Source: Streptomyces virus LukeCage
Taxonomy: Duplodnaviria; Heunggongvirae; Uroviricota; Caudoviricetes
IMG/VR virus record: IMGVR_UViG_2974629454_000001
Location: 59,119 to 123,118 of that record
Strand: one strand, 5' to 3'
DNA length: 64,000 nt
Shown here: positions 7,536 through 57,068 of the stretch, piece after piece
How positions within the stretch are numbered: position 1 is the first letter of the stretch
Layout: each line of letters begins with the position of its first letter
Notes under the pieces: generated by a model
Databases searched by the model: none
What the model was told of the DNA's origin: nothing
Seen by the model: the letters and a program-made list of their open reading frames with translations, nothing else
Made by a program: the position numbers and the translations under genes

Positions 7536-7677
7536 GCTATATGAGAGCAAGGCGTGGTTGCAGGAAAGATATCGCAGAAAGACTGCGGCTCAGATTGCTA
7601 AGATCTGTGGTGTCTCTGAAATGACGATCACTCGATGGCTCGCAAAACATAATATTCCAATCAGGAGGAGCCGATGA
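7528..7677 (+). CDS. small HTH DNA-binding protein (49 aa, TTG start)
   Basis: AAQIAKICGVSEMTITRWL is a helix-turn-helix motif; GGAGG Shine-Dalgarno; its stop overlaps the next ATG. It is not in the ORF track because it is under 60 aa. Confidence 0.45.
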   Translation: MAKLYESKAWLQERYRRKTAAQIAKICGVSEMTITRWLAKHNIPIRRSR

Positions 7678-9945: not shown

Positions 9946-10002
9946 CAATAATCCTATATCCTTTCATGATATACTATTCAATATGAAAGGATATAGGATT
10001 TT
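9946..10002 (+). terminator. 18-bp perfect inverted repeat followed by a T-run
   Basis: aatcctatatcctttcat ... atgaaaggatataggatt tttt. Confidence 0.6.
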
Positions 10003-12997: not shown

Positions 12998-13104
12998 GCT
13001 GATAAAGTAGTAAATGTGGGTCGAAGGGCTCGGTCGGTTATCTTACATTGGAAATAGAAAGGTCATTAAATTGGCCACCCGACTCCCAACACTTATCCAC
13101 ATAT

Positions 13105-14577: not shown

Positions 14578-14740
14578 CAATTTGGGTCGAATGGGATACG
14601 GTTATCATTCAATGGATAATAGGTTCGATTCCTATCGCTGGGTTCGCCCGGTAGATACAAGTCATCTGAGATTGTGTGTGGTAGGATGACATTAAGGACT
14701 ACACACTATCCGTTCCCGCCTTATACCTAAAGGACTTATT

Positions 14741-15279: not shown

Positions 15280-15356
15280 TGGGGCGTATACCCTCTGTCT
15301 GATAAACAGTTGAAAGGTTAAGTGGTCACATGTGGGTTCAACTCCCACCGTCCCAA
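15280..15356 (+). other. tRNA-like element (acceptor stem plus canonical T arm; internal arms non-canonical)
   Basis: tggggcg ... gtgggttcaactcccac cgtccca. Confidence 0.35.
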
Positions 15357-21255: not shown

Positions 21256-21330
21256 TTTGGGTCGAATGACTATCGGTTATCTGTCTATGAAACAGACCGA
21301 AACACGGTTCGAATCCGTGGATTGCTTTGG
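21256..21330 (+). ncRNA. tRNA-like module (candidate Y-RNA-like) with canonical T arm and anticodon-like hairpin but no pairing acceptor
   Basis: gggtcgaatgactatcggttatc ... gtct-atgaaac-agac ... cacggttcgaatccgtg. Confidence 0.4.
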
Positions 21331-21374
21331 CGCTAGGTTTACGGTCGATGTCAACAACTTACCCATACAACTTA

Positions 21375-21445
21375 ATTCGGGCCGAATGGAATCGGTTATC
21401 TTACACTGCAAATATAAGGTCGATTCCTACCAACTTGCCCGATCT
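21375..21445 (+). ncRNA. tRNA-like module (candidate Y-RNA-like)
   Basis: Terminal stem tcgggc/gcccga; D-like hairpin ccga-atggaa-tcgg; T-loop-like ggtcgattcc; shares the CGGTTATCTTACA...AAGGTCGATTCC box with 13027-13100 and 14588-14650. Confidence 0.4.
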
Positions 21446-21471
21446 TTTCATTTCTACGGAAGGATCAAAGG

Positions 21472-21843: not shown

Positions 21844-23472
21844 ATGTCCAACGCACTAACTAATGCCGCAAAGGCAACCAACAAGACTTCTCAGAAGCTG
21901 CCAGCAAAGGCAGGACAGGTCAAGAACAACGCTGGTGGATTCGTCTTCCAGGTTTCTGATCAGTCACGCCTTGAGCGCTTTCTGATTCTTGGAACCGATG
22001 GAGGAACGTATTACGTTTCTGAGGTTAACCACACTCAGTCAAACGTAACCTTCCTCAACGAGATGATTGAGCGAGACGAAGCCTCTGTACTGAACACAAT
22101 TGTTGATGTATCTGTCAATGGTCGTGCGTACAAGCAGTCTCCTGCCCTGTTCGCTCTAGCCTCTGTCATTGTCAACGGCAAGGATAAGCAGGCGGTCAAG
22201 GCGGTATTCAACAGGGTCGTAAGGACTGCTACTCACCTCTACGAGGTGGTTAACTACCTTAACGAGCTTGGTGGATGGGGTCGCGCAAAGCGAGAGATCG
22301 TAGCTGGCTGGTTCGACAAGGACGCTGATAAGCTTGCTTATCAGGCTGTCAAGTATCGTTCCCGCACGTTCGGTGGAAACACCTGGACGCTACGAGACGT
22401 AATGCGAAAGGCTCACCCACAGAACGTCAACACGTCTGTTGCTGATTTCGTCCTTGGCAAGGAGCACGCGGCTGTAGATGACCTCCGGGTTATCGAGGGC
22501 TTCAAGCTTATGCAGAAGGCGGAGTCTGTAGAGGCTGTTCACGCAGTTCTGCGGGATTACGAGATGCTTAGCTGGGAGACTATTCCAACGCAGTTCCTCA
22601 CGGATGCTAGCGTTTGGAAGCGACTCTTTGCTAATGGTCAGCTTCGTGGTCAGGCTGCTGTTCGAAACATCACTCGCCTCGCGCGTATTGGTGCTTTCAA
22701 GGACATGCGGTTCGCTGCGAACTTTGCTAGCCAGCTAGCGAATGAGGAAATGATTCGTCAGTCTCGACTGCACCCAATTAACTTCCTTAACGCTGCCGTT
22801 GTTTACGCAGAAGGCCAGGTGGATCGAAAGAACATCTGGGGCGGACGTGTAAAGAACTGGGAGACTGAGGCCGTTATTGTCGATGCAATCGATGAGGCGT
22901 TCCACAAGTCATTCAAGACCATTGAGCCAGCCGGTAAGAGGACGATGCTAGCCATCGACTGTTCCGGTTCAATGAGCACACAGGCTATGGGTCTCGACCT
23001 AAGCTGTGCGCAGGTTGCTGGTGCTATGGCAATGACCATTGCTCGTACTGAGCCAGCTCACATCATCCGTGGTTTCTCTTCACAGGGATACAACTGGCGT
23101 GATAGCGGTATGGCTGAACTAAAGATTACTGGTCGCAGCTCTCTTGCTCAGGCAATGAGTGCAATGCGTGCGGTAAACTGGGGAGGCACAGACTGCTCAC
23201 TGCCAATGACGTGGGCTCTTGAGAATGGTGTGGAAGTTGACACCTTCGTTGTTATCACTGATAACGAGACGTGGGCTGGCAAGATTCACCCATTCCAGGC
23301 TCTCAAGAACTATCGTAAGAGCACAGGTATTGATGCACGACTTGCTGTTCTAGGAGTCGCTTCAACTCCATTCACTATTGCTGATAGTTCCGACCGAGGG
23401 ATGATGGATTTCGTAGGGTTCGACAGCAATGCACCTCGTGTGCTCGCTGACTTCTCTGCGGGTCGCATCTGA
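21844..23472 (+). CDS. rsr: Ro60/Rsr orthologue (TROVE domain + C-terminal vWA)
   Basis: N-terminal RLERFLILGTDGGTYYVSE is the Ro60 signature; C-terminal metal-ion-dependent adhesion site (MIDAS) IDCSGSMS and VVITDNETWAG; length is typical of Ro60. Confidence 0.8.
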   Translation: MSNALTNAAKATNKTSQKLPAKAGQVKNNAGGFVFQVSDQSRLERFLILGTDGGTYYVSEVNHTQSNVTFLNEMIERDEASVLNTIVDVSVNGRAYKQSPALFALASVIVNGKDKQAVKAVFNRVVRTATHLYEVVNYLNELGGWGRAKREIVAGWFDKDADKLAYQAVKYRSRTFGGNTWTLRDVMRKAHPQNVNTSVADFVLGKEHAAVDDLRVIEGFKLMQKAESVEAVHAVLRDYEMLSWETIPTQFLTDASVWKRLFANGQLRGQAAVRNITRLARIGAFKDMRFAANFASQLANEEMIRQSRLHPINFLNAAVVYAEGQVDRKNIWGGRVKNWETEAVIVDAIDEAFHKSFKTIEPAGKRTMLAIDCSGSMSTQAMGLDLSCAQVAGAMAMTIARTEPAHIIRGFSSQGYNWRDSGMAELKITGRSSLAQAMSAMRAVNWGGTDCSLPMTWALENGVEVDTFVVITDNETWAGKIHPFQALKNYRKSTGIDARLAVLGVASTPFTIADSSDRGMMDFVGFDSNAPRVLADFSAGRI

Positions 23473-27300: not shown

Positions 27301-27549
27301 GTGCCAGCAAAGATACCAACCCAAATAGAAGCAAGAATAGTAGTGGCCATTCTTTCAGGAATTATCGGCGCACTACTTTCAAGCTTCCTGTTAATGGGAT
27401 GTATCACTGAGAGCAATGAAACAAGCAAGATGAAAGCTTGTGTTTCTAAGAATATGGAGTGGGTAAACGCGCCCGGTGGTCCGGAGTGCAGGAAGCCACT
27501 TGACAGACTACCAGAACCAAGCTACAGTAGTACAAGTAAGCCAGAGTAA
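27301..27549 (+). CDS. putative lipoprotein (LLMGC lipobox); start uncertain
   Basis: Hydrophobic N-terminus then Cys. Confidence 0.4.
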   Translation: MPAKIPTQIEARIVVAILSGIIGALLSSFLLMGCITESNETSKMKACVSKNMEWVNAPGGPECRKPLDRLPEPSYSSTSKPE

Positions 27550-27831: not shown

Positions 27832-27848
27832 CAGCCCGTAAGGGCAAT

Positions 27849-27923
27849 GCCCCGTTGGTCTAGTGGTTTAGGATACCGGACTTTCAATCCGTGTGAACGT
27901 CGGTTCGAATCCGACACGGGGTA
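27849..27923 (+). tRNA. tRNA-Glu(UUC)
   Basis: Acceptor gccccgt/acggggt (G1-U72); D region tggtctagtggtttagga is E. coli Glu-like; loop ctttcaa; T arm gtcggttcgaatccgac. Confidence 0.75.
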
Positions 27924-27991
27924 CGTGGGCCGTGACGCAACAAACTCTTTAGGAGAAAATCCTGTAGTGTACATGCAGGAACACGGCTTAT

Positions 27992-28064
27992 GCGGGTGTC
28001 GTCTAGCGGCAAAGGCTCCTGCCTTACAAGCAGGTAATCGGAGGTTCGAGTCCTCTCACCCGTA
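27992..28064 (+). tRNA. tRNA-Val(UAC)
   Basis: Acceptor gcgggtg/cacccgt (G1-U72); anticodon arm cctgc-cttacaa-gcagg; T arm ggaggttcgagtcctct. Confidence 0.7.
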
Positions 28065-28068
28065 CGCA

Positions 28069-28164
28069 GGAGAATTAAAAGTTCCGAAAAGTTGGTCACT
28101 CAGTAGGAACGTTTTACATGTGGGTCTAACCAGCCCGGTGCCGGGGTCGAATCCGGATTCTCCG
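28069..28164 (+). other. over-long (96 nt) tRNA-like gene, isotype unresolved
   Basis: Perfect 7-bp acceptor ggagaat/attctcc; T-like ccgg-ggtcgaat-ccgg; internal stem gttcc...ggaac encloses 19 nt. Confidence 0.35.
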
Positions 28165-28172
28165 TTAAGTTT

Positions 28173-28250
28173 GGGTCTGACAGGTGTGACGTTACTGAAA
28201 GCCGACAATGGACCGGTAACGGATAGTGGGTTCGACTCCCACCAGATCCA
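28173..28250 (+). other. tRNA-like gene (78 nt), internal arms unresolved
   Basis: Acceptor gggtctg/cagatcc; T arm gtgggttcgactcccac. Confidence 0.35.
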
Positions 28251-28271
28251 CAGATGATATATTCATCGTAT

Positions 28272-28345
28272 GCGCTCGTAGCCCAACGGCAGGAGGCACA
28301 AGGCTTAGACCCTTGGTAGTGTCGGTTCGAATCCGACCGGGCGTA
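28272..28345 (+). tRNA. class I tRNA with anticodon UAG (leucine codon CUA) but a short variable loop
   Basis: Acceptor gcgctcg/cgggcgt (G1-U72, A73); anticodon arm caagg-cttagac-ccttg; variable gtagt; T arm gtcggttcgaatccgac. Confidence 0.6.
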
Positions 28346-28358
28346 CGTAAGAATTGAT

Positions 28359-28439
28359 GGGCTCGTGGTGGAATGGTATACACGTTAGTCTTAGGAACTA
28401 ATGCCGAAAGGATTGTGAGTTCGAGTCTCACCGGGCCTA
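28359..28439 (+). tRNA. tRNA-Leu(UAG), class II
   Basis: Acceptor gggctcg/cgggcct; anticodon arm ttagt-cttagga-actaa; 12-13 nt variable arm; T arm gtgagttcgagtctcac. Confidence 0.65.
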
Positions 28440-28493
28440 CTTTGATGGTAAACGCGATATCATCAAATGCATATCAGGTCGCTCCTGATATGA

Positions 28494-28619
28494 GGAGTGT
28501 AGTTTAATTGGCAAAACCGCGAAATGCAATGTCGAACGGGAAGTGCTGCTGAGCTAAAGGCAGGTCTTACCTTAGTAGATATCAGAGTAGCAGTTGCGGG
28601 TTCGAGTCCCGTCACTCCG
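28494..28619 (+). other. 126-nt tRNA-like RNA: acceptor + D arm + T arm with about 50 nt inserted between the D and T regions
   Basis: ggagtg...cactcc acceptor; D arm gttt-aattggca-aaac; T arm gcgggttcgagtcccgt; two hairpins upstream (28441-28491). Confidence 0.3.
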
Positions 28620-28759
28620 CTAGCCTGAGATGACGATCCGATGTAGGTCCCCTAGGGCTTGCGCAGGCCCGAAGGGCATTCGGGAAAGGTGCCTAGCTAG
28701 GTCCGTCTACCAATAAGGTGAGAGTTTTTCACGGTTTTCCTCATAATTAAACCGTGTTT

Positions 28760-28832
28760 GGTCCTTTGGCAGAGATGGTAATGCACTCGGTTGAAGCCCG
28801 AGATATCTCAGTTCGATTCTGAGGGGGACCAC
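28760..28832 (+). tRNA. tRNA-Phe(GAA)
   Basis: Acceptor ggtcctt/ggggacc; loop ttgaagc; T arm ctcagttcgattctgag. Confidence 0.6.
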
Positions 28833-28835
28833 AAT

Positions 28836-28900
28836 GAATAAGCCAGGAACGGTTCGATTCCGTGTTACCTAGGTTGGTGTATGGCGCATAGGCTTATTCA
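28836..28900 (+). other. hairpin with a 9-bp stem enclosing a canonical T-arm motif (permuted tRNA-like)
   Basis: gaataagcc agga acggttcgattccgt ... aggcttattc. Confidence 0.4.
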
Positions 28901-28905
28901 GTAAT

Positions 28906-28976
28906 CCGCAGTGGTGAAATGGTATCATGCGACCTTGCCAAGGTTGTGGCGCGAGTTCGATTCTCGTCTGCGGGAC
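28906..28976 (+). tRNA. tRNA-Gly(GCC)
   Basis: cgaccttgccaaggttg and gcgagttcgattctcgt match the E. coli Gly(GCC) arms; acceptor tccgcag/ctgcggg. Confidence 0.7.
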
Positions 28977-28981
28977 TCTTG

Positions 28982-29054
28982 CCCCGGTAGCGTAGTGGAT
29001 AACGCGGCTGTCTTCTAAACAGTTATAGGCAGGTTCGATTCCTGTCCGGGGTAC
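28982..29054 (+). tRNA. tRNA-Arg(UCU)
   Basis: Acceptor gccccgg/ccggggt; D arm gcgt/acgc; anticodon arm gctgt-cttctaa-acagt; T arm gcaggttcgattcctgt. Confidence 0.65.
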
Positions 29055-36557: not shown

Positions 36558-36629
36558 GCATGTAAGCCAGGGATAAGCTAGGCGGGCCTGTAAAGCCCTA
36601 CCTTGTTGGTTCGAATCCAACTACATGCA
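36558..36629 (+). tRNA. class I tRNA with anticodon GUA (Tyr-decoding) and no long variable arm
   Basis: Acceptor gcatgta/tacatgc; anticodon arm gggc-ctgtaaa-gccc; T arm gttggttcgaatccaac. Confidence 0.5.
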
Positions 36630-39563: not shown

Positions 39564-39841
39564 GGGGATGCCTTGGTTTCGACTGGGGTGGATGACTTTA
39601 GTTTGCAGCCTGACATTGAGGAGATGTCATTAAAAAGCCTCAAACCTATAAATGCCAACTCTAACGTTGCATCTGCCTACGCCCTAGCGGCGTGATGGCC
39701 GGGCGGCAACTGCCTAGGAACAGAAAGTTGCGAATGTTTGGCCCGGTGGGGATAAACACACGCAGTATCTGCTTGACACATGGCTGTGTATAGACTACTG
39801 TTTGAAGCATCAGGACGCGGGTTCGACTCCCGCCATCTCCA
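39564..39841 (+). ncRNA. ssrA: tmRNA (SsrA), compact about 278-nt form; tag peptide ANSNVASAYALAA
   Basis: The 5' end ggggatgccttggtttcgactgggg and the 3' end ggacgcgggttcgactcccgccatctcc align with the E. coli tmRNA termini. The acceptor ggggatg/catctcc carries G3-U70. The tag ORF gcc...tga at 39664-39705 ends in YALAA. Confidence 0.85.
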
Positions 39842-39854
39842 CTTAAGGATCAAA

Positions 39855-42125: not shown

Positions 42126-42155
42126 TTGACAGCCCCTATAGGTCTCTAGTAGACT
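42126..42155 (+). promoter_or_regulatory. sigma70-like promoter TTGACA-N18-TAGACT
   Basis: Lies upstream of the long tRNA-like element. Confidence 0.45.
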
Positions 42156-42170
42156 AGCTGTCATAAGCAT

Positions 42171-42298
42171 GGCCCCAAAGAGTCACTAGCGGTCTACGGT
42201 AGCGCTGCCGCCCGTTAGACTCCATGCGGCACCAGGCTTGTGCAACCGACGGGTTGAGAACATAAGCAAAGGGGAGGGTTCGAATCCCTCTGGGGTCC
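42171..42298 (+). other. 128-nt tRNA-like RNA: acceptor + canonical T arm + a D stem with a 32-nt loop
   Basis: Acceptor ggcccca/tggggtc; D-like stem gagtc...gactc; T arm gagggttcgaatccctc. Confidence 0.35.
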
Positions 42299-47917: not shown

Positions 47918-47999
47918 GCGCCCATGGTGGAATGGCAGACACACTAGGCTGAGACCCTAGGCTCGAATGAGCGTCCGAGTTCGATTCTCGGTGGGCGTA
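47918..47999 (+). tRNA. tRNA-Leu(GAG), class II
   Basis: Acceptor gcgccca/tgggcgt; anticodon arm ctagg-ctgagac-cctag; variable-arm hairpin gctc-gaat-gagc; T arm ccgagttcgattctcgg. Confidence 0.7.
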
Positions 48000-48000
48000 C

Positions 48001-48587: not shown

Positions 48588-48658
48588 ACCCGCTTAGTTC
48601 AATGGTAGAGCGCCTGCTCGACACGCAGGGGACGGGAGTTCGATTCTCCCAGTGGGTA
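48588..48658 (+). tRNA. tRNA-Val(GAC)
   Basis: Acceptor acccgct/agtgggt; anticodon arm cctgc-tcgacac-gcagg; T arm gggagttcgattctccc. Confidence 0.65.
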
Positions 48659-48680
48659 CTCCATCGACCGAAGGGTTTCA

Positions 48681-49599: not shown

Positions 49600-49673
49600 G
49601 GCCCTGTAGCAGAATGGTATATGCGGCGGTCTCAAAAACCGCGTCAATGTGGGTTCGAGTCCCATCAGGGCTA
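49600..49673 (+). tRNA. class I tRNA with anticodon CAA (leucine codon UUG), short variable loop
   Basis: Acceptor ggccctg/cagggct (G1-U72, A73); perfect anticodon arm gcggt-ctcaaaa-accgc; T arm gtgggttcgagtcccat. Confidence 0.55.
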
Positions 49674-49674
49674 C

Positions 49675-54809: not shown

Positions 54810-54880
54810 GCCATCAGGCCGGGTATACTAGCCAAGACTAGGGAACTATGGGGTTCGAATCCCTACCGGCCGCAATAAAT
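54810..54880 (+). other. mini tRNA-like element (acceptor-like stem plus canonical T arm; too short for a full tRNA)
   Basis: ggccgg ... tggggttcgaatcccta ccggcc. Confidence 0.3.
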
Positions 54881-56961: not shown

Positions 56962-57041
56962 TCCCCAGTTGCTCTGTTTGGCAGGGGCCGCCTGACTTTG
57001 AATCAGGATTAGCGACGTAGGTTCGAATCCTACCTGGGGAG
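56962..57041 (+). tRNA. tRNA-Gln(UUG) with an enlarged D loop and a 9-nt variable region
   Basis: Perfect acceptor tccccag/ctgggga (U1-A72, as in E. coli Gln); anticodon arm cctga-ctttgaa-tcagg; T arm gtaggttcgaatcctac. Confidence 0.6.
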
Positions 57042-57068
57042 CTTCCAATTCCAATACGAGGGGTATCA

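Follow-up and report, generated by a model that had tools for sequence, protein, structure and literature searches.

Conserved tRNA-like RNAs lacking a usable anticodon arm in the tRNA array of Streptomyces phage LukeCage

The tRNA array of Streptomyces phage LukeCage (cluster BE) encodes structured RNAs that retain parts of the tRNA scaffold and have no usable anticodon arm. Three of these elements, of 96, 126 and 128 nt (E96, E126 and E128), are unannotated in LukeCage. Each has conserved counterparts in related phages, in between 13 and 80 genomes, and both the number of genomes and the compensatory base changes in the helices place them far beyond chance. On balance we favour the view that these three and a fourth element, E80, are non-decoding small RNAs on a tRNA scaffold, which would undergo tRNA-like processing and display binding modules. 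Most probably they are regulatory or decoy RNAs that are processed as tRNAs are, and not intron-bearing tRNAs. The elements constitute new RNA families, of a general kind that is already known. Their positions in the window (the whole stretch of 64,000 nucleotides that was analysed) are listed in Table 1.

Between 27849 and 29054, ARAGORN and Rfam identify tRNAs Glu(ttc), Val(tac), Leu(tag) (twice), Phe(gaa), Gly(gcc) and Arg(tct), in agreement with the canonical tRNAs named in a preliminary description of this DNA. Of the checks that it proposed, ARAGORN in intron mode, Rfam models and a comparison of related phages were applied; the elements proved to be real and their coordinates were confirmed. 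That description had overlooked E80, the two-hairpin leader of E126, and both the Ro60 gene and the Y RNAs that go with it. The LukeCage array comprises 43 tRNA genes, and a complete, separate tmRNA lies at 39564-39842; cluster BE Streptomyces phages are annotated with 39-48 tRNAs and one tmRNA.

Table 1. Positions of the tRNA-like elements and associated features in the window
Feature	Position	Strand	Basis
Y3 and Y4, two unannotated Y-like RNAs directly 5′ of Ro	21258..21448	+	Rfam (Y4), conservation
Ro60 orthologue gene, candidate partner	21844..23472	+	GenBank label, Pfam
E96, four-helix cloverleaf RNA	28069..28164	+	sequence, per-sequence folds, covariation
Invariant E96 loop, GAAAAGUUGGUCACUCAGUA	28086..28105	+	100% identity in relatives
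E80, tRNA-like RNA, 78 nt	28173..28250	+	pair count over 13 sequences
E126 leader (L1 hairpin 28441-28467, L2 hairpin 28470-28492)	28441..28492	+	conservation, covariation
E126, tRNA-like body with anticodon arm replaced	28493..28620	+	Rfam tRNA 32.5 bits, alignments A6 and A8
E126 central domain, 5′ strand GUCGAA	28531..28536	+	GYCGAA invariant
E126 central domain, 3′ strand AGUAGAUAUCAGAGUAGC	28574..28591	+	conservation
Promoter-like TTGACA-N18-TAGACT directly 5′ of E128	42126..42155	+	sequence, conservation
E128, tRNA-like RNA	42171..42298	+	covariation, conservation

The principal evidence for RNA structure is covariation, measured as the percentage of paired cells and compared with a control in which the pairing partners were slid. 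The compared sequences are kin, so that shuffle statistics overstate their independence; the slid-partner control is free of that problem. Across E96, E126 and E128, 97-98% of cells are paired, as against 25-51% when slid, and 8-17 base pairs per element have changed on both sides. The individual values are 97.0% (slid, 39-51%) for E96, in an alignment fitted to its own model, with changes on both sides in 17 of 29 pairs; 98.3% (36-45%) for E126, with 16 of 40; and 97.9% (25-48%) for E128, with 8 of 42. E80 gives 96.2% (35-56%), with 10 of its 20 pairs changed on both sides over 13 sequences, a set that takes in four unrelated phage contigs. Half of the pairs of the E126 leader (9 of 18) have likewise changed on both sides, and within E126 the alignment pair 93-141 is UA in 11 sequences and CG in 2. 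A model of E96 built from one subgroup alone (R1) retrieves the other subgroups at 60-67 bits. The covariation thus supports one of the options raised in the preliminary description, that of novel structured RNAs.

The elements share the tRNA scaffold to different extents. A 7-bp acceptor stacked on a T arm of the tRNA type (5-bp stem, T-loop TTCRANY) is found in E126, E80 and E128 and in part in E96, and a tRNA D arm with A14 and G18G19 is found in E126, other structures occupying its place in E96, E80 and E128. All four lack the combination of a 5-bp anticodon stem, a 7-nt loop and a conserved anticodon. The Rfam tRNA model (RF00005) leaves E96, E80 and E128 unmatched even at E <= 5-10.

E96, which begins 4 nt past the discriminator of tRNA-Val, has the perfect acceptor pairing described earlier (7 bp, GGAGAAT/ATTCTCC). 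The GTTCC/GGAAC stem within it is also real, and encloses 20 nt, not the 19 originally counted. This stem belongs to a bipartite 10-bp hairpin (P1) that is capped by the 20-nt loop. A second hairpin of 8-9 bp (P2) carries the 7-nt loop CUAACCA, in which position 37 is C. There is also a T-like hairpin, short (4-5 bp) and of the form CCGG-8 nt-CCGG. Because neither the T-loop nor the D-loop is conserved, E96 is unable to form a standard tRNA elbow. ARAGORN, intron mode included, makes no tRNA call for it, and no Rfam family matches. The element is missing from some close relatives (StarPlatinum and Yaboi) and is therefore dispensable.

The 20-nt loop of E96 is identical in all BE relatives that carry the element. 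At its base are GAA...AGUA, and an inner AGU/ACU mini-helix presenting UGGUC is possible. The same loop is found on unrelated stems in other phage contigs, L132 (GC 0.28) and L174-L177 and L180 (GC 0.55-0.58), and has no match in 185,579 bacterial and archaeal species genomes. In the unrelated contigs examined, no shared gene for a partner protein was found beside it: the overlap with L132 is limited to an RNA ligase and a single small protein, and that with L175 to a large replication-type protein. The loop could pair over 8 nt with the CCAACUU strand of the Y-like RNA Y4; 8-mer complements occur in the window at chance level, and so we draw no conclusion from this pairing. The E96 model, applied to non-BE phages, found no relatives beside Ro.

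E80 has an acceptor of GGGUCUG/CAGAUCC with A73 and with G3.U70 in 13 of 13 sequences, and a canonical T arm. A D stem is missing, and a conserved 16-nt loop, AAAGCCGACAAUGGAC, sits on a stem of 8 bp. When this exact 16-mer was used as a search anchor, most matches were chance occurrences in coding sequence, and matches were kept only if a T arm followed downstream. In other phages E80 adjoins tRNA-Ala genes. The acceptor with G3.U70 and A73, the canonical T arm and the missing D stem liken it to the tRNA-like domain of tmRNA and to tRNA-Ala minihelices, and its homologues in other phages begin with GGGGCUGAAAGG, which resembles tmRNA. Unlike tmRNA, E80 is only 78 nt long, with a single hairpin and without pseudoknots; inspection of the sequences by eye revealed no conserved tag reading frame or stop, and tmRNA models give only trivial partial matches of 11.7 bits (permuted tmRNA, RF04321) and 9.4 bits (beta_tmRNA). 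The earlier idea of tmRNA-like RNAs thus holds for the overlooked E80, through its G3.U70 acceptor, and not otherwise.

In E126 the acceptor, D and T arms follow one another in tRNA order, as had been reported, although the better register begins one base earlier, at 28493. In this register the tRNA model matches the full length of 28493-28620 at 32.5 bits (gathering score 29), with 71 nt where the model has 15 positions, and the extra sequence is therefore about 55 nt and not about 50. The acceptor has a conserved A1.G72 mismatch with C73; the D arm (U8, A14, G18G19, A21) and the T arm are canonical. In place of the anticodon arm is a central domain of the form GCGAAAUGCAAUGUC-GAA-(variable hairpin of 16-35 nt)-KAGUA-GAUAU-CAGAGUAGC, in which GAUA pairs with UGUC, with one compensatory UGCC/GGUA variant. 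The leader accompanies E126 in every relative, including Coruscant, where the body is a 72-nt short form with the 6-nt loop GUCGAA. The L2 hairpin has an invariant UCGCU loop and abuts position 1 of the body, where it might block RNase P, so that E126 may keep a 5′ extension. E126 is present in 80 phage records and is annotated in only one of these, as tRNA-Tyr.

E128 has an invariant acceptor, GGCCCCA/UGGGGUC, with G2.U71. Its T arm is canonical and covaries, and the D and anticodon arms give way to three internal hairpins. The 128-nt element is real, as first described, but its supposed 32-nt D loop is a nested hairpin. It occurs in 58 phage records and is unannotated save for a tRNA-OTHER label in Mildred21.

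How these RNAs would be made and what they would do may be envisaged as follows. E96, E80 and E126 would be transcribed within a polycistronic tRNA precursor: a promoter scan shows strong promoters just upstream of the cluster, at 27500 and 27574, and no promoter or terminator signals inside 27849-29054. E128 would be transcribed from its own promoter. The promoter-like stretch in front of it is conserved upstream of E128 in L182 and L184-L187 and has the consensus of the promoters scanned near the tRNA cluster, which suggests that E128 is a separate transcription unit. The minihelix of acceptor and T arm would be a substrate for RNase P at the 5′ end, for 3′ trimming and for CCA addition, and as such would lead to the excision of the elements from the precursor and their persistence as stable RNAs of about 80-130 nt. 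Processing of the tRNA type is plausible because the elements have 7-bp acceptors, T arms (T-like in E96), spacers of merely 4-21 nt to the adjoining tRNAs, and no internal promoter or terminator. The anticodon part would be replaced by a display module of invariant sequence, each binding a protein or RNA partner; candidates for such modules are the 20-nt loop of E96, the GUCGAA and AGUAGAUA internal loops of E126 and the 16-nt loop of E80. E80, by its G3.U70 pair, is probably charged with alanine. We infer that the likeliest setting is what the phage itself encodes for RNA surveillance and repair, namely Ro60 and its Y RNAs, Pnkp and RNA ligase 1, together with the translation and tRNA machinery of the host.

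The Ro60 orthologue of LukeCage is recognized by Pfam (TROVE, 3.7e-35; vWA_Ro60, 2e-59) and has homologues in 358 phage records; LukeCage also encodes Rnl1 (RNA ligase 1), Pnkp and a borderline RlaP. Four Y-like RNAs are encoded, at 13017, 14583, 21258 and 21375. The last two, Y3 (approximately 21258-21365, with a T arm at 21303) and Y4 (21375-21448, UCGGGCCGAAUGGAAUCGGUUAUC...CCAACUUGCCCGA-UCUUUU), are conserved in close relatives, and the whole of Y4 aligns with two families of Y-RNA homologues, RF01656 (32.1 bits, E 4.6e-5) and RF00019. Ro60 is on the same strand and in the same array as the elements, 5 kb from E96 and E126 and 19 kb from E128, and Y3 and Y4 adjoin it. The bacterial Y RNA YrlA (RF02553) resembles the elements in being a small RNA with a tRNA-like part and a separate binding module in a Ro60-bearing genome, and tRNA enzymes act on its tRNA-like domain, modifying it, cleaving it (RNase P) and adding CCA (PMC4201824). 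YrlA, as in the true example in L038, ends in a long Ro-binding stem of its 5′ and 3′ ends and has a loop-closed acceptor, whereas the acceptors of E126, E96, E80 and E128 are open and the parts stand in normal tRNA order; the internal loop and strand polarity of E126 also differ from those of the Y module. Built like E126 are RNAs beside Ro in two other phages (L224, 9565-9816; L230, 7309-7724), which score as over-long tRNAs with the Rfam tRNA model. They share with E126 an open acceptor, a D arm (almost identical to that of E126 in the L230 RNA at 7604), a domain of 50-70 nt replacing the anticodon arm, and a T arm. The domain at their centre can be recognized as a Y module (GCCGAAUG...GUUAUC, facing UAACUAUU), and Ro is their immediate neighbour, whereas the conserved domain of E126 is another one and Ro is 5 kb from it.

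It could be argued from this setting that E126, and perhaps E96 and E128, are themselves Y RNAs in tRNA order, that is, Ro60 ligands that gate Ro60 or tether it, for example to PNPase. We consider this rather unlikely. The upstream Ro60 gene on the same strand speaks for it, as do the invariant GYCGAA of E126 and the GUCGAAG of the Coruscant loop, which fits the Rsr-recognition motif GNCGAAN0-1G (Chen et al. 2014, PMC4201824). However, chance alone makes the hexamer common, the plus strand of the window having about 70 copies, and we dismissed it as proof of Ro binding; the GUCGAACG of E126 matches the motif but lies on the D-arm strand with a different opposing strand, whereas the strand with the motif runs on into the T arm in YrlA, L224 and L230, and E96, E80 and E128 have no conserved copy. 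The loop of E126 is GAA/UAGUA, as against CGAAU/CAACUU in Y RNAs, and GGUUAUC is absent. Also in favour of this reading, the tRNA-ordered RNAs with Y modules of distant Ro phages are picked up by the E126 and Rfam tRNA models, a YrlA beside Ro in L205 has CCCGAAUGCAAUAAC past its D arm (compare GCGAAAUGCAAUGUC in E126), and an element adjoining it has CCGAAAGUUGGCGAC (compare the E96 loop). Outside BE, though, the E126 model is not discriminating as a detector, because ordinary tRNAs score 20-41 bits with it. The YrlA model itself has no match on the elements at E <= 10 in the cluster, where it gives just one row, a partial match of 18.9 bits that covers tRNA-Gly/Arg, nor any match at E <= 5 across 12500-58000. 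All E126 carriers also carry Ro, but this co-occurrence follows from phylogeny, and four better Y candidates exist, two of them adjoining Ro. Descent of E126 from YrlA, by way of a 23-nt string of T arm and acceptor common to the L038 YrlA, was considered and rejected: the string is generic tRNA-Asp-like sequence, also found in the tRNA-Asp genes, or the 3′ halves of such genes, of about 35 further viral contigs. The D arm of E126 is not specific to YrlA either; it recurs in LukeCage's own tRNA-Gly and is therefore generic. The earlier suggestion of Y-RNA-like mimics is thus borne out in that Ro60 and true Y-like RNAs are encoded, the latter elsewhere, and in the architecture of E126, but not in the loop or by the YrlA model.

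The remaining readings concern tRNA itself. That the elements are ordinary decoding tRNAs with removable insertions or introns, as the preliminary description had proposed among its options, is scarcely credible. E126 does exceed the Rfam tRNA threshold, ARAGORN in intron mode forces it into a Cys(gca) with a 41-nt intron, and GenBank annotates the Mildred21 homologue as Tyr(gta), but these identities clash with one another and with the OTHER label, and E96, E80 and E128 have no credible tRNA call at all. The would-be anticodon of E126 is GCA or GCG depending on the genome, and no anticodon stem is possible around it; the invariant bases sit inside the supposed insert, variation being confined to its tip; and the 6-nt loop of the Coruscant form does not have the make-up of an anticodon loop. 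Among the Rfam families, neither a group I intron nor any other intron matches the elements, and to our knowledge bacteria have no protein-dependent tRNA splicing. Decaying tRNA pseudogenes, for which a tRNA array with its expected duplication and decay would be the natural place, or sequences that act as DNA sites or as a small protein-coding gene and not at the RNA level, are very improbable. Every helix is maintained by compensatory changes, loops are invariant while stems change, and the elements are conserved in 58-80 genomes; E80 and the loop of E96 extend to unrelated phages as well. Coding potential is limited to mechanical open reading frames such as one of 136 aa (27847-28257) that overlaps E96 and E80, but this frame also crosses two genuine tRNA genes, the differences in element length are not multiples of three, and the order of E96 and E80 is swapped between genomes. 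Alternatively, the elements could be decoys or sponges for host defences that target tRNAs (anticodon nucleases, acceptor-modifying toxins), sparing the real phage tRNAs. The classical tRNA-repair pair of Pnkp and Rnl1 and the 43-gene array imply pressure on tRNAs, the acceptor and T-arm features known to tRNA-binding enzymes are retained, E80 keeps the alanine identity pair, and E96 is patchy among close relatives, as arms-race genes would be. Yet anticodon nucleases read anticodon loops, which the elements lack, mimicry of any tRNA does not account for loops that are invariant and foreign to tRNAs, such as the 20-mer of E96, and no defence system or target was identified in this analysis; a decoy function of this kind is in our judgement distinctly unlikely.

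For the favoured reading, that of non-decoding RNAs on a tRNA scaffold, there are precedents of a general sort. Species 1 and 2 of phage T4 (rnaC and rnaD) are stable non-tRNA RNAs that are encoded in the T4 tRNA cluster and derive from tRNA precursors. We know of no function assigned to them after decades; they resemble the LukeCage elements by genomic setting alone. Host and phage family differ, and so, presumably, do the folds. Irregular tRNAs or allo-tRNAs, with other than 7/5 acceptor/T geometry, are odd cloverleaves in bacterial and phage tRNA polycistrons, and some have been proposed to be regulatory non-coding RNAs (Mukai et al. 2017, PMC5389517). In contrast to the LukeCage elements, allo-tRNAs keep a normal anticodon arm and can decode. 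A literature search on the loop sequences, on non-canonical tRNA-like RNAs in phage arrays and on expression found nothing relevant.

Finally, we raise a bolder idea, tentative but in our view a serious possibility. GAAAAGUUGGUCACUCAGUA may be a portable RNA module that is traded among unrelated phages (GC 0.28-0.58) and binds one conserved factor of translation or RNA surveillance. E126 and E128 would then be further members and E80 an alanine-accepting one, and together with Ro60, the Y RNAs, Pnkp/Rnl1 and tmRNA they would form an unannotated phage RNA-control system; large phages with tRNA arrays would hide tRNA-scaffolded effector RNAs. The small size of the elements, the presence of the phages and hosts in culture collections and the existence of genetic tools make the question directly testable. 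If the elements are processed like tRNAs yet act as binding platforms, the YrlA principle of a tRNA-like handle with an effector module would extend to several new folds, a short, invariant, phage-specific RNA loop would serve as direct bait for its partner, and there would be a concrete entry point to the role of phage-encoded Ro60. The arrays of cluster BE phages hold, besides their tRNAs, four Y-like RNAs and no fewer than four conserved structured RNAs, which are unannotated or mislabelled (tRNA-Tyr, tRNA-OTHER), and, on the reading proposed here, tRNA counts and tRNA-OTHER calls in large phages would need to be re-examined.

The sequence matches Streptomyces phage LukeCage (cluster BE, genus Karimacvirus; MH590597.1) at 100% identity; subtracting 59118 from a record position gives the window position. 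ARAGORN finds 42 tRNAs and one tmRNA in the window, every one on the + strand; the canonical tRNAs of 27849-29054 are, by ARAGORN and Rfam, those of the preliminary description (Glu, Val, two Leu(tag), Phe, Gly and Arg). The published literature on BE phages consists of genome announcements, which report 39-48 tRNAs and one tmRNA and do not mention other RNAs. GenBank leaves three unannotated gaps in the cluster (28066-28271, 28441-28759 and 28833-28904), and a scan for perfect T-arm motifs outside the ARAGORN calls gave eight orphans on the + strand (14619, 15332, 21303, 28226, 28596, 36605, 42274 and 54849). The elements E96, E80, E126 and E128 are conserved folds with tRNA-type ends, no decoding arms and invariant display loops. 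In the cluster, spacers of 4-21 nt set the elements off from adjacent tRNAs. Homologues of E96, E126 and E128 are unannotated in almost all phage records.

Positions of the elements and of the Ro-related features in LukeCage and in two contigs of distant phages (L224, L230)
Feature	Position	Strand	Remarks
E96	28069-28164	+	tRNA-like element with perfect 7-bp closing stem
E80	28173-28250	+	fourth tRNA-like element in the flagged interval, from an orphan T arm; missed by the preliminary description
E126	28493-28620	+	Rfam tRNA model, full-length, 32.5 bits (threshold 29)
E128	42171-42298	+	canonical T arm, 7-bp acceptor
Y-like RNAs, unannotated	13017-13103, 14583-14680, 21258-21365, 21375-21448		start GGGYCGAAKG...CGGUUAUC, 3′ strand CAAC(A)CUU
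Ro60 orthologue gene	21844-23472		TROVE 3.7e-35, Ro60-vWA 2e-59
Over-long tRNA-ordered RNAs	L224 9565-9816		directly upstream of Ro
Over-long tRNA-ordered RNAs	L230 7309-7724		~2.3 kb upstream of Ro

Among the readings offered beforehand, that of novel structured RNAs is borne out: in alignments of homologues, all four elements have conserved folds with pair changes on both sides. Shuffle controls overstate significance here, the genomes in the comparison being related; more weight falls on the slid-partner controls and on how many independent pair types occur. For E96 (13 distinct sequences, aligned by covariance model), 97.0% of cells pair, as against 39-51% with the 3′ partners slid; both sides have changed in 17 of 29 pairs, and the covariation score is 0.61 versus 0.10-0.18. 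A plain MAFFT alignment of 13 E126 sequences pairs in 98.3% of cells (36-45% slid), with both-side changes in 16 of 40 pairs. E80 is 96.2% paired (35-56% slid) and changed on both sides in 10 of 20 pairs across 13 sequences, of which four come from unrelated phage contigs. The tRNA-like element described at 42171-42298 is likewise present: ten E128 homologues of 128-129 nt are 97.9% paired (25-48% slid), with eight pairs altered on both sides. In the phage collection, E128 occurs in 58 records, E126 with its leader in 80, and E96 in 13 when sought at the sensitivity of BLAST, with further records recovered through its loop.

E128 has its own upstream promoter-like TTGACA-N18-TAGACT. In Wofford, NootNoot, EGole, Lululemon and Teutsch, an extra tRNA-like element absent from LukeCage lies upstream of E128 (~1-140 of loci L188-L192); it has a T arm GGAGGTTCGATTCCTCC, a TTGACA-N17-TAGGAT promoter-like stretch and GAUGACAGAGUAG, similar to GAUAACAGAGUAG of E126.

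In E96, the perfect pairing of the closing stem is confirmed, and the GTTCC/GGAAC stem noted previously encloses 20 nt rather than 19. Relatives fall into two sequence subgroups plus Coruscant. A covariance model trained on the LukeCage type alone retrieves both Coruscant and the Mildred21-type subgroup over their full length, scoring 60-67 bits. Folded singly, nearly all give the same four-helix cloverleaf without unpaired junction bases. The closing and hairpin stems vary by compensatory changes, and the 20-nt loop GAAAAGUUGGUCACUCAGUA is identical throughout. One 7-nt loop, CUAACCA, does place a U where U33 would be, but it stands on an 8-9 bp stem with C at 37, and the molecule has no conserved D- or T-loop; decoding by E96 is on these grounds very unlikely.

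In 185,579 bacterial and archaeal species, each represented by a single genome, the exact 20-mer has no copy. Outside BE phages it occurs in the viral contigs L132, L174-L177 and L180. In L132, an AT-rich 364-kb contig with a jumbo-phage tRNA array that also encodes a tmRNA and an RNA ligase homologous to LukeCage's, it occupies the matching array position: Glu(ttc), Val(tac), module, Leu(tag). In L174-L177, which are GC-rich contigs of 130-256 kb, it forms two tandem hairpins 52 nt apart. In every non-BE case the closing stems are unrelated yet complementary sequences. The loop is a putative portable module. Invariance of a loop on changing stems is what marks a sequence-specific binding site; no neighbour gene shared by the non-BE loop contigs indicates its partner. 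The loop (28086-28105) also includes AAGUUGGU, which could pair with ACCAACUU of the fourth Y-like RNA (3′ strand, 21430-21437), although such complementary 8-mers occur in the window at chance level; its UGGU is likewise complementary to ACCA of the second E96 loop.

E80 has G3.U70 in 13 of 13 sequences; its homologues in unrelated phages adjoin tRNA-Ala genes and have a tmRNA-like start (GGGGCUGAAAGG). With G3.U70 and A73, E80 is predicted, on the established rules of alanine identity, to be a substrate of alanyl-tRNA synthetase.

E126 has acceptor, D and T arms in tRNA order with extra nucleotides between the D and T arms, as previously described and as the Rfam tRNA alignment confirms: all three parts are canonical (in the D arm U8, A14, G18G19 and A21), and the place of the anticodon arm is taken by 71 nt. 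A 52-nt two-hairpin leader always accompanies it, the second hairpin abutting position 1. The central strands (GCGAAAUGC..UGYCGAA and AGUAGRUAWCAGAGUAGC) are nearly invariant, with a hairpin of 16 to 35 nt between them; a single compensatory replacement, of UGUC/GAUA by UGCC/GGUA, backs the inner stem. All forms keep an A1.G72 mismatch and, after it, C73, including Coruscant's 72-nt short form, where a 6-7 bp stem with loop GUCGAA replaces the long domain.

Could these be tRNAs with insertions or mini-introns, as first proposed? ARAGORN in intron mode and a Rfam search were among the checks put forward. For E126 the former yields nothing but tRNA-Cys(gca) with a 41-nt intron, and it gives no call on E96; the latter matches no group I intron or other family. 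The identities are inconsistent: GenBank has the Mildred21 homologue as tRNA-Tyr(gta) and Coruscant's as tRNA-OTHER, and the would-be anticodon is GCA or GCG by genome. No anticodon stem flanks it, and the "intron" is the conserved part, holding invariant bases with variation confined to its tip. Introns, pseudogenes and coding sequence are each very improbable. The mechanical ORFs that overlie the elements lack credibility, since one crosses two real tRNA genes.

A general mechanism of tRNA-processed, partner-binding RNAs is the reading toward which we lean, if narrowly. The elements would be freed by RNase P and 3′ processing and then CCA-tailed; the tRNA-like minihelix would stabilise them, and the display modules would act by binding partners. 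The setting is a genome rich in RNA-surveillance and repair genes, including a T4-type RNA ligase 1, a bifunctional Pnkp and a borderline RlaP nucleotidyltransferase. That the elements are instead decoys for tRNA-targeting defences we consider quite improbable.

It is also conceivable, though unlikely, that Ro60 is the specific partner of E126. Two Y-like RNAs (21258 and 21375) lie directly upstream of the Ro60 gene, the latter matching the sbRNA/Y_RNA homologue models RF01656 (32 bits, E 4.6e-5) and RF00019 full-length but below threshold, and orphan T arms 14619 and 21303 are parts of two such RNAs. In bacterial Y RNAs the Rsr-recognition motif is GNCGAAN0-1G, and the tRNA-like domain of YrlA is modified, cut by RNase P and CCA-tailed (Chen et al., PMC4201824). 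E126 has GUCGAACG with GYCGAA invariant, a motif type common by chance; a link to YrlA through a common 23-mer was rejected, the string being generic tRNA-Asp sequence. Across 39 Ro-encoding viral loci, the E96 model has no match outside BE, and the E126 model does not separate targets from ordinary tRNAs. It did turn up over-long tRNA-ordered RNAs in two loci of distant phages (L224 and L230, Ro at 10001 in both), in tandem units of 118-145 nt that carry, in the anticodon-arm place, a complete Y module as central domain, with a small loop closing it. They score 36-49 bits with the Rfam tRNA model, and the YrlA model spans the junction of neighbouring units. The tRNA with its anticodon arm swapped for a binding module is therefore a class that really exists next to Ro genes of phages. 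The L224 and L230 RNAs amount to a circularly permuted, tRNA-ordered YrlA form, of which we found no description.

The Y-RNA-like reading survives in part. E126 shares the build of these RNAs but departs from them in three ways: the internal loop reads GAA/UAGUA instead of CGAAU/CAACUU, GUCGAA sits on the strand joined to the D arm instead of the strand that runs into the T arm, and GGUUAUC is missing. A further locus, L205, whose Ro is 62% identical, has a classical YrlA and an adjoining tRNA-like RNA immediately upstream of that gene; short stretches in them look like the E126 strand and the E96 loop, a resemblance that is suggestive, not decisive, as a link to Ro.

Some genomes have E96 before E80 and others the reverse, so the array has been rearranged module by module; among relatives (StarPlatinum, Wipeout, JimJam, Mildred21 and Wofford), several have HNH endonuclease genes inserted between tRNA genes of the cluster. 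The order Asp, Asp, Glu, Glu, Val, E96-loop module, Val, Leu(tag) at 450-2130 of L132 is common to BE phages, a sign that phages of very different kinds may have exchanged segments of their arrays. Immediately 5′ of 27849-29054 are strong TTGACA-N17 promoters; this is the interval within which a scan for promoter- and terminator-like sites found none except a weak promoter-like match (28718, 9/12) and a spurious terminator-like call spanning the junction of E126 with its second leader hairpin. The 139 nt from E126 to tRNA-Phe (28621-28759), with GC-rich hairpins and that weak site, are 75-99% conserved in several relatives and missing from others. Spacers 27925-27991 and 28833-28904 have hairpins stabler than shuffles (z = -3.6 and -2.9, respectively) and are kept in close relatives; the latter has a T-arm-like GGAACGGTTCGATTCCGT. 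Elsewhere, 15280-15356 is an unannotated weak match to the Rfam tRNA model (30.3 bits), 36558-36629 (35.3 bits) is missed by ARAGORN and is a second tRNA-Tyr in GenBank, and 54816-54873 is weakly tRNA-like, its orphan T arm 54849 being found by a second covariance model (R2). For 47918-48000, 48588-48659, 49600-49674 and 56962-57042 (record genes 216, 220, 224 and 249), GenBank gives anticodons ctc, gtc, ttg and caa and ARAGORN gag, gac, caa and ttg; the GenBank anticodons appear to be listed reversed.

Finally, no Rfam 15 family covers E96, E80 or E128, and E126 is a marginal tRNA match only; the loop sequences are not reported in the searchable literature. The general kind, a tRNA-like handle with an effector module, is known from YrlA. 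T4 species 1 and 2 RNAs are stable non-tRNA RNAs within a phage tRNA cluster. We therefore rate E96, E80, E126 and E128 as comprising several new RNA families that are variants on a known theme.
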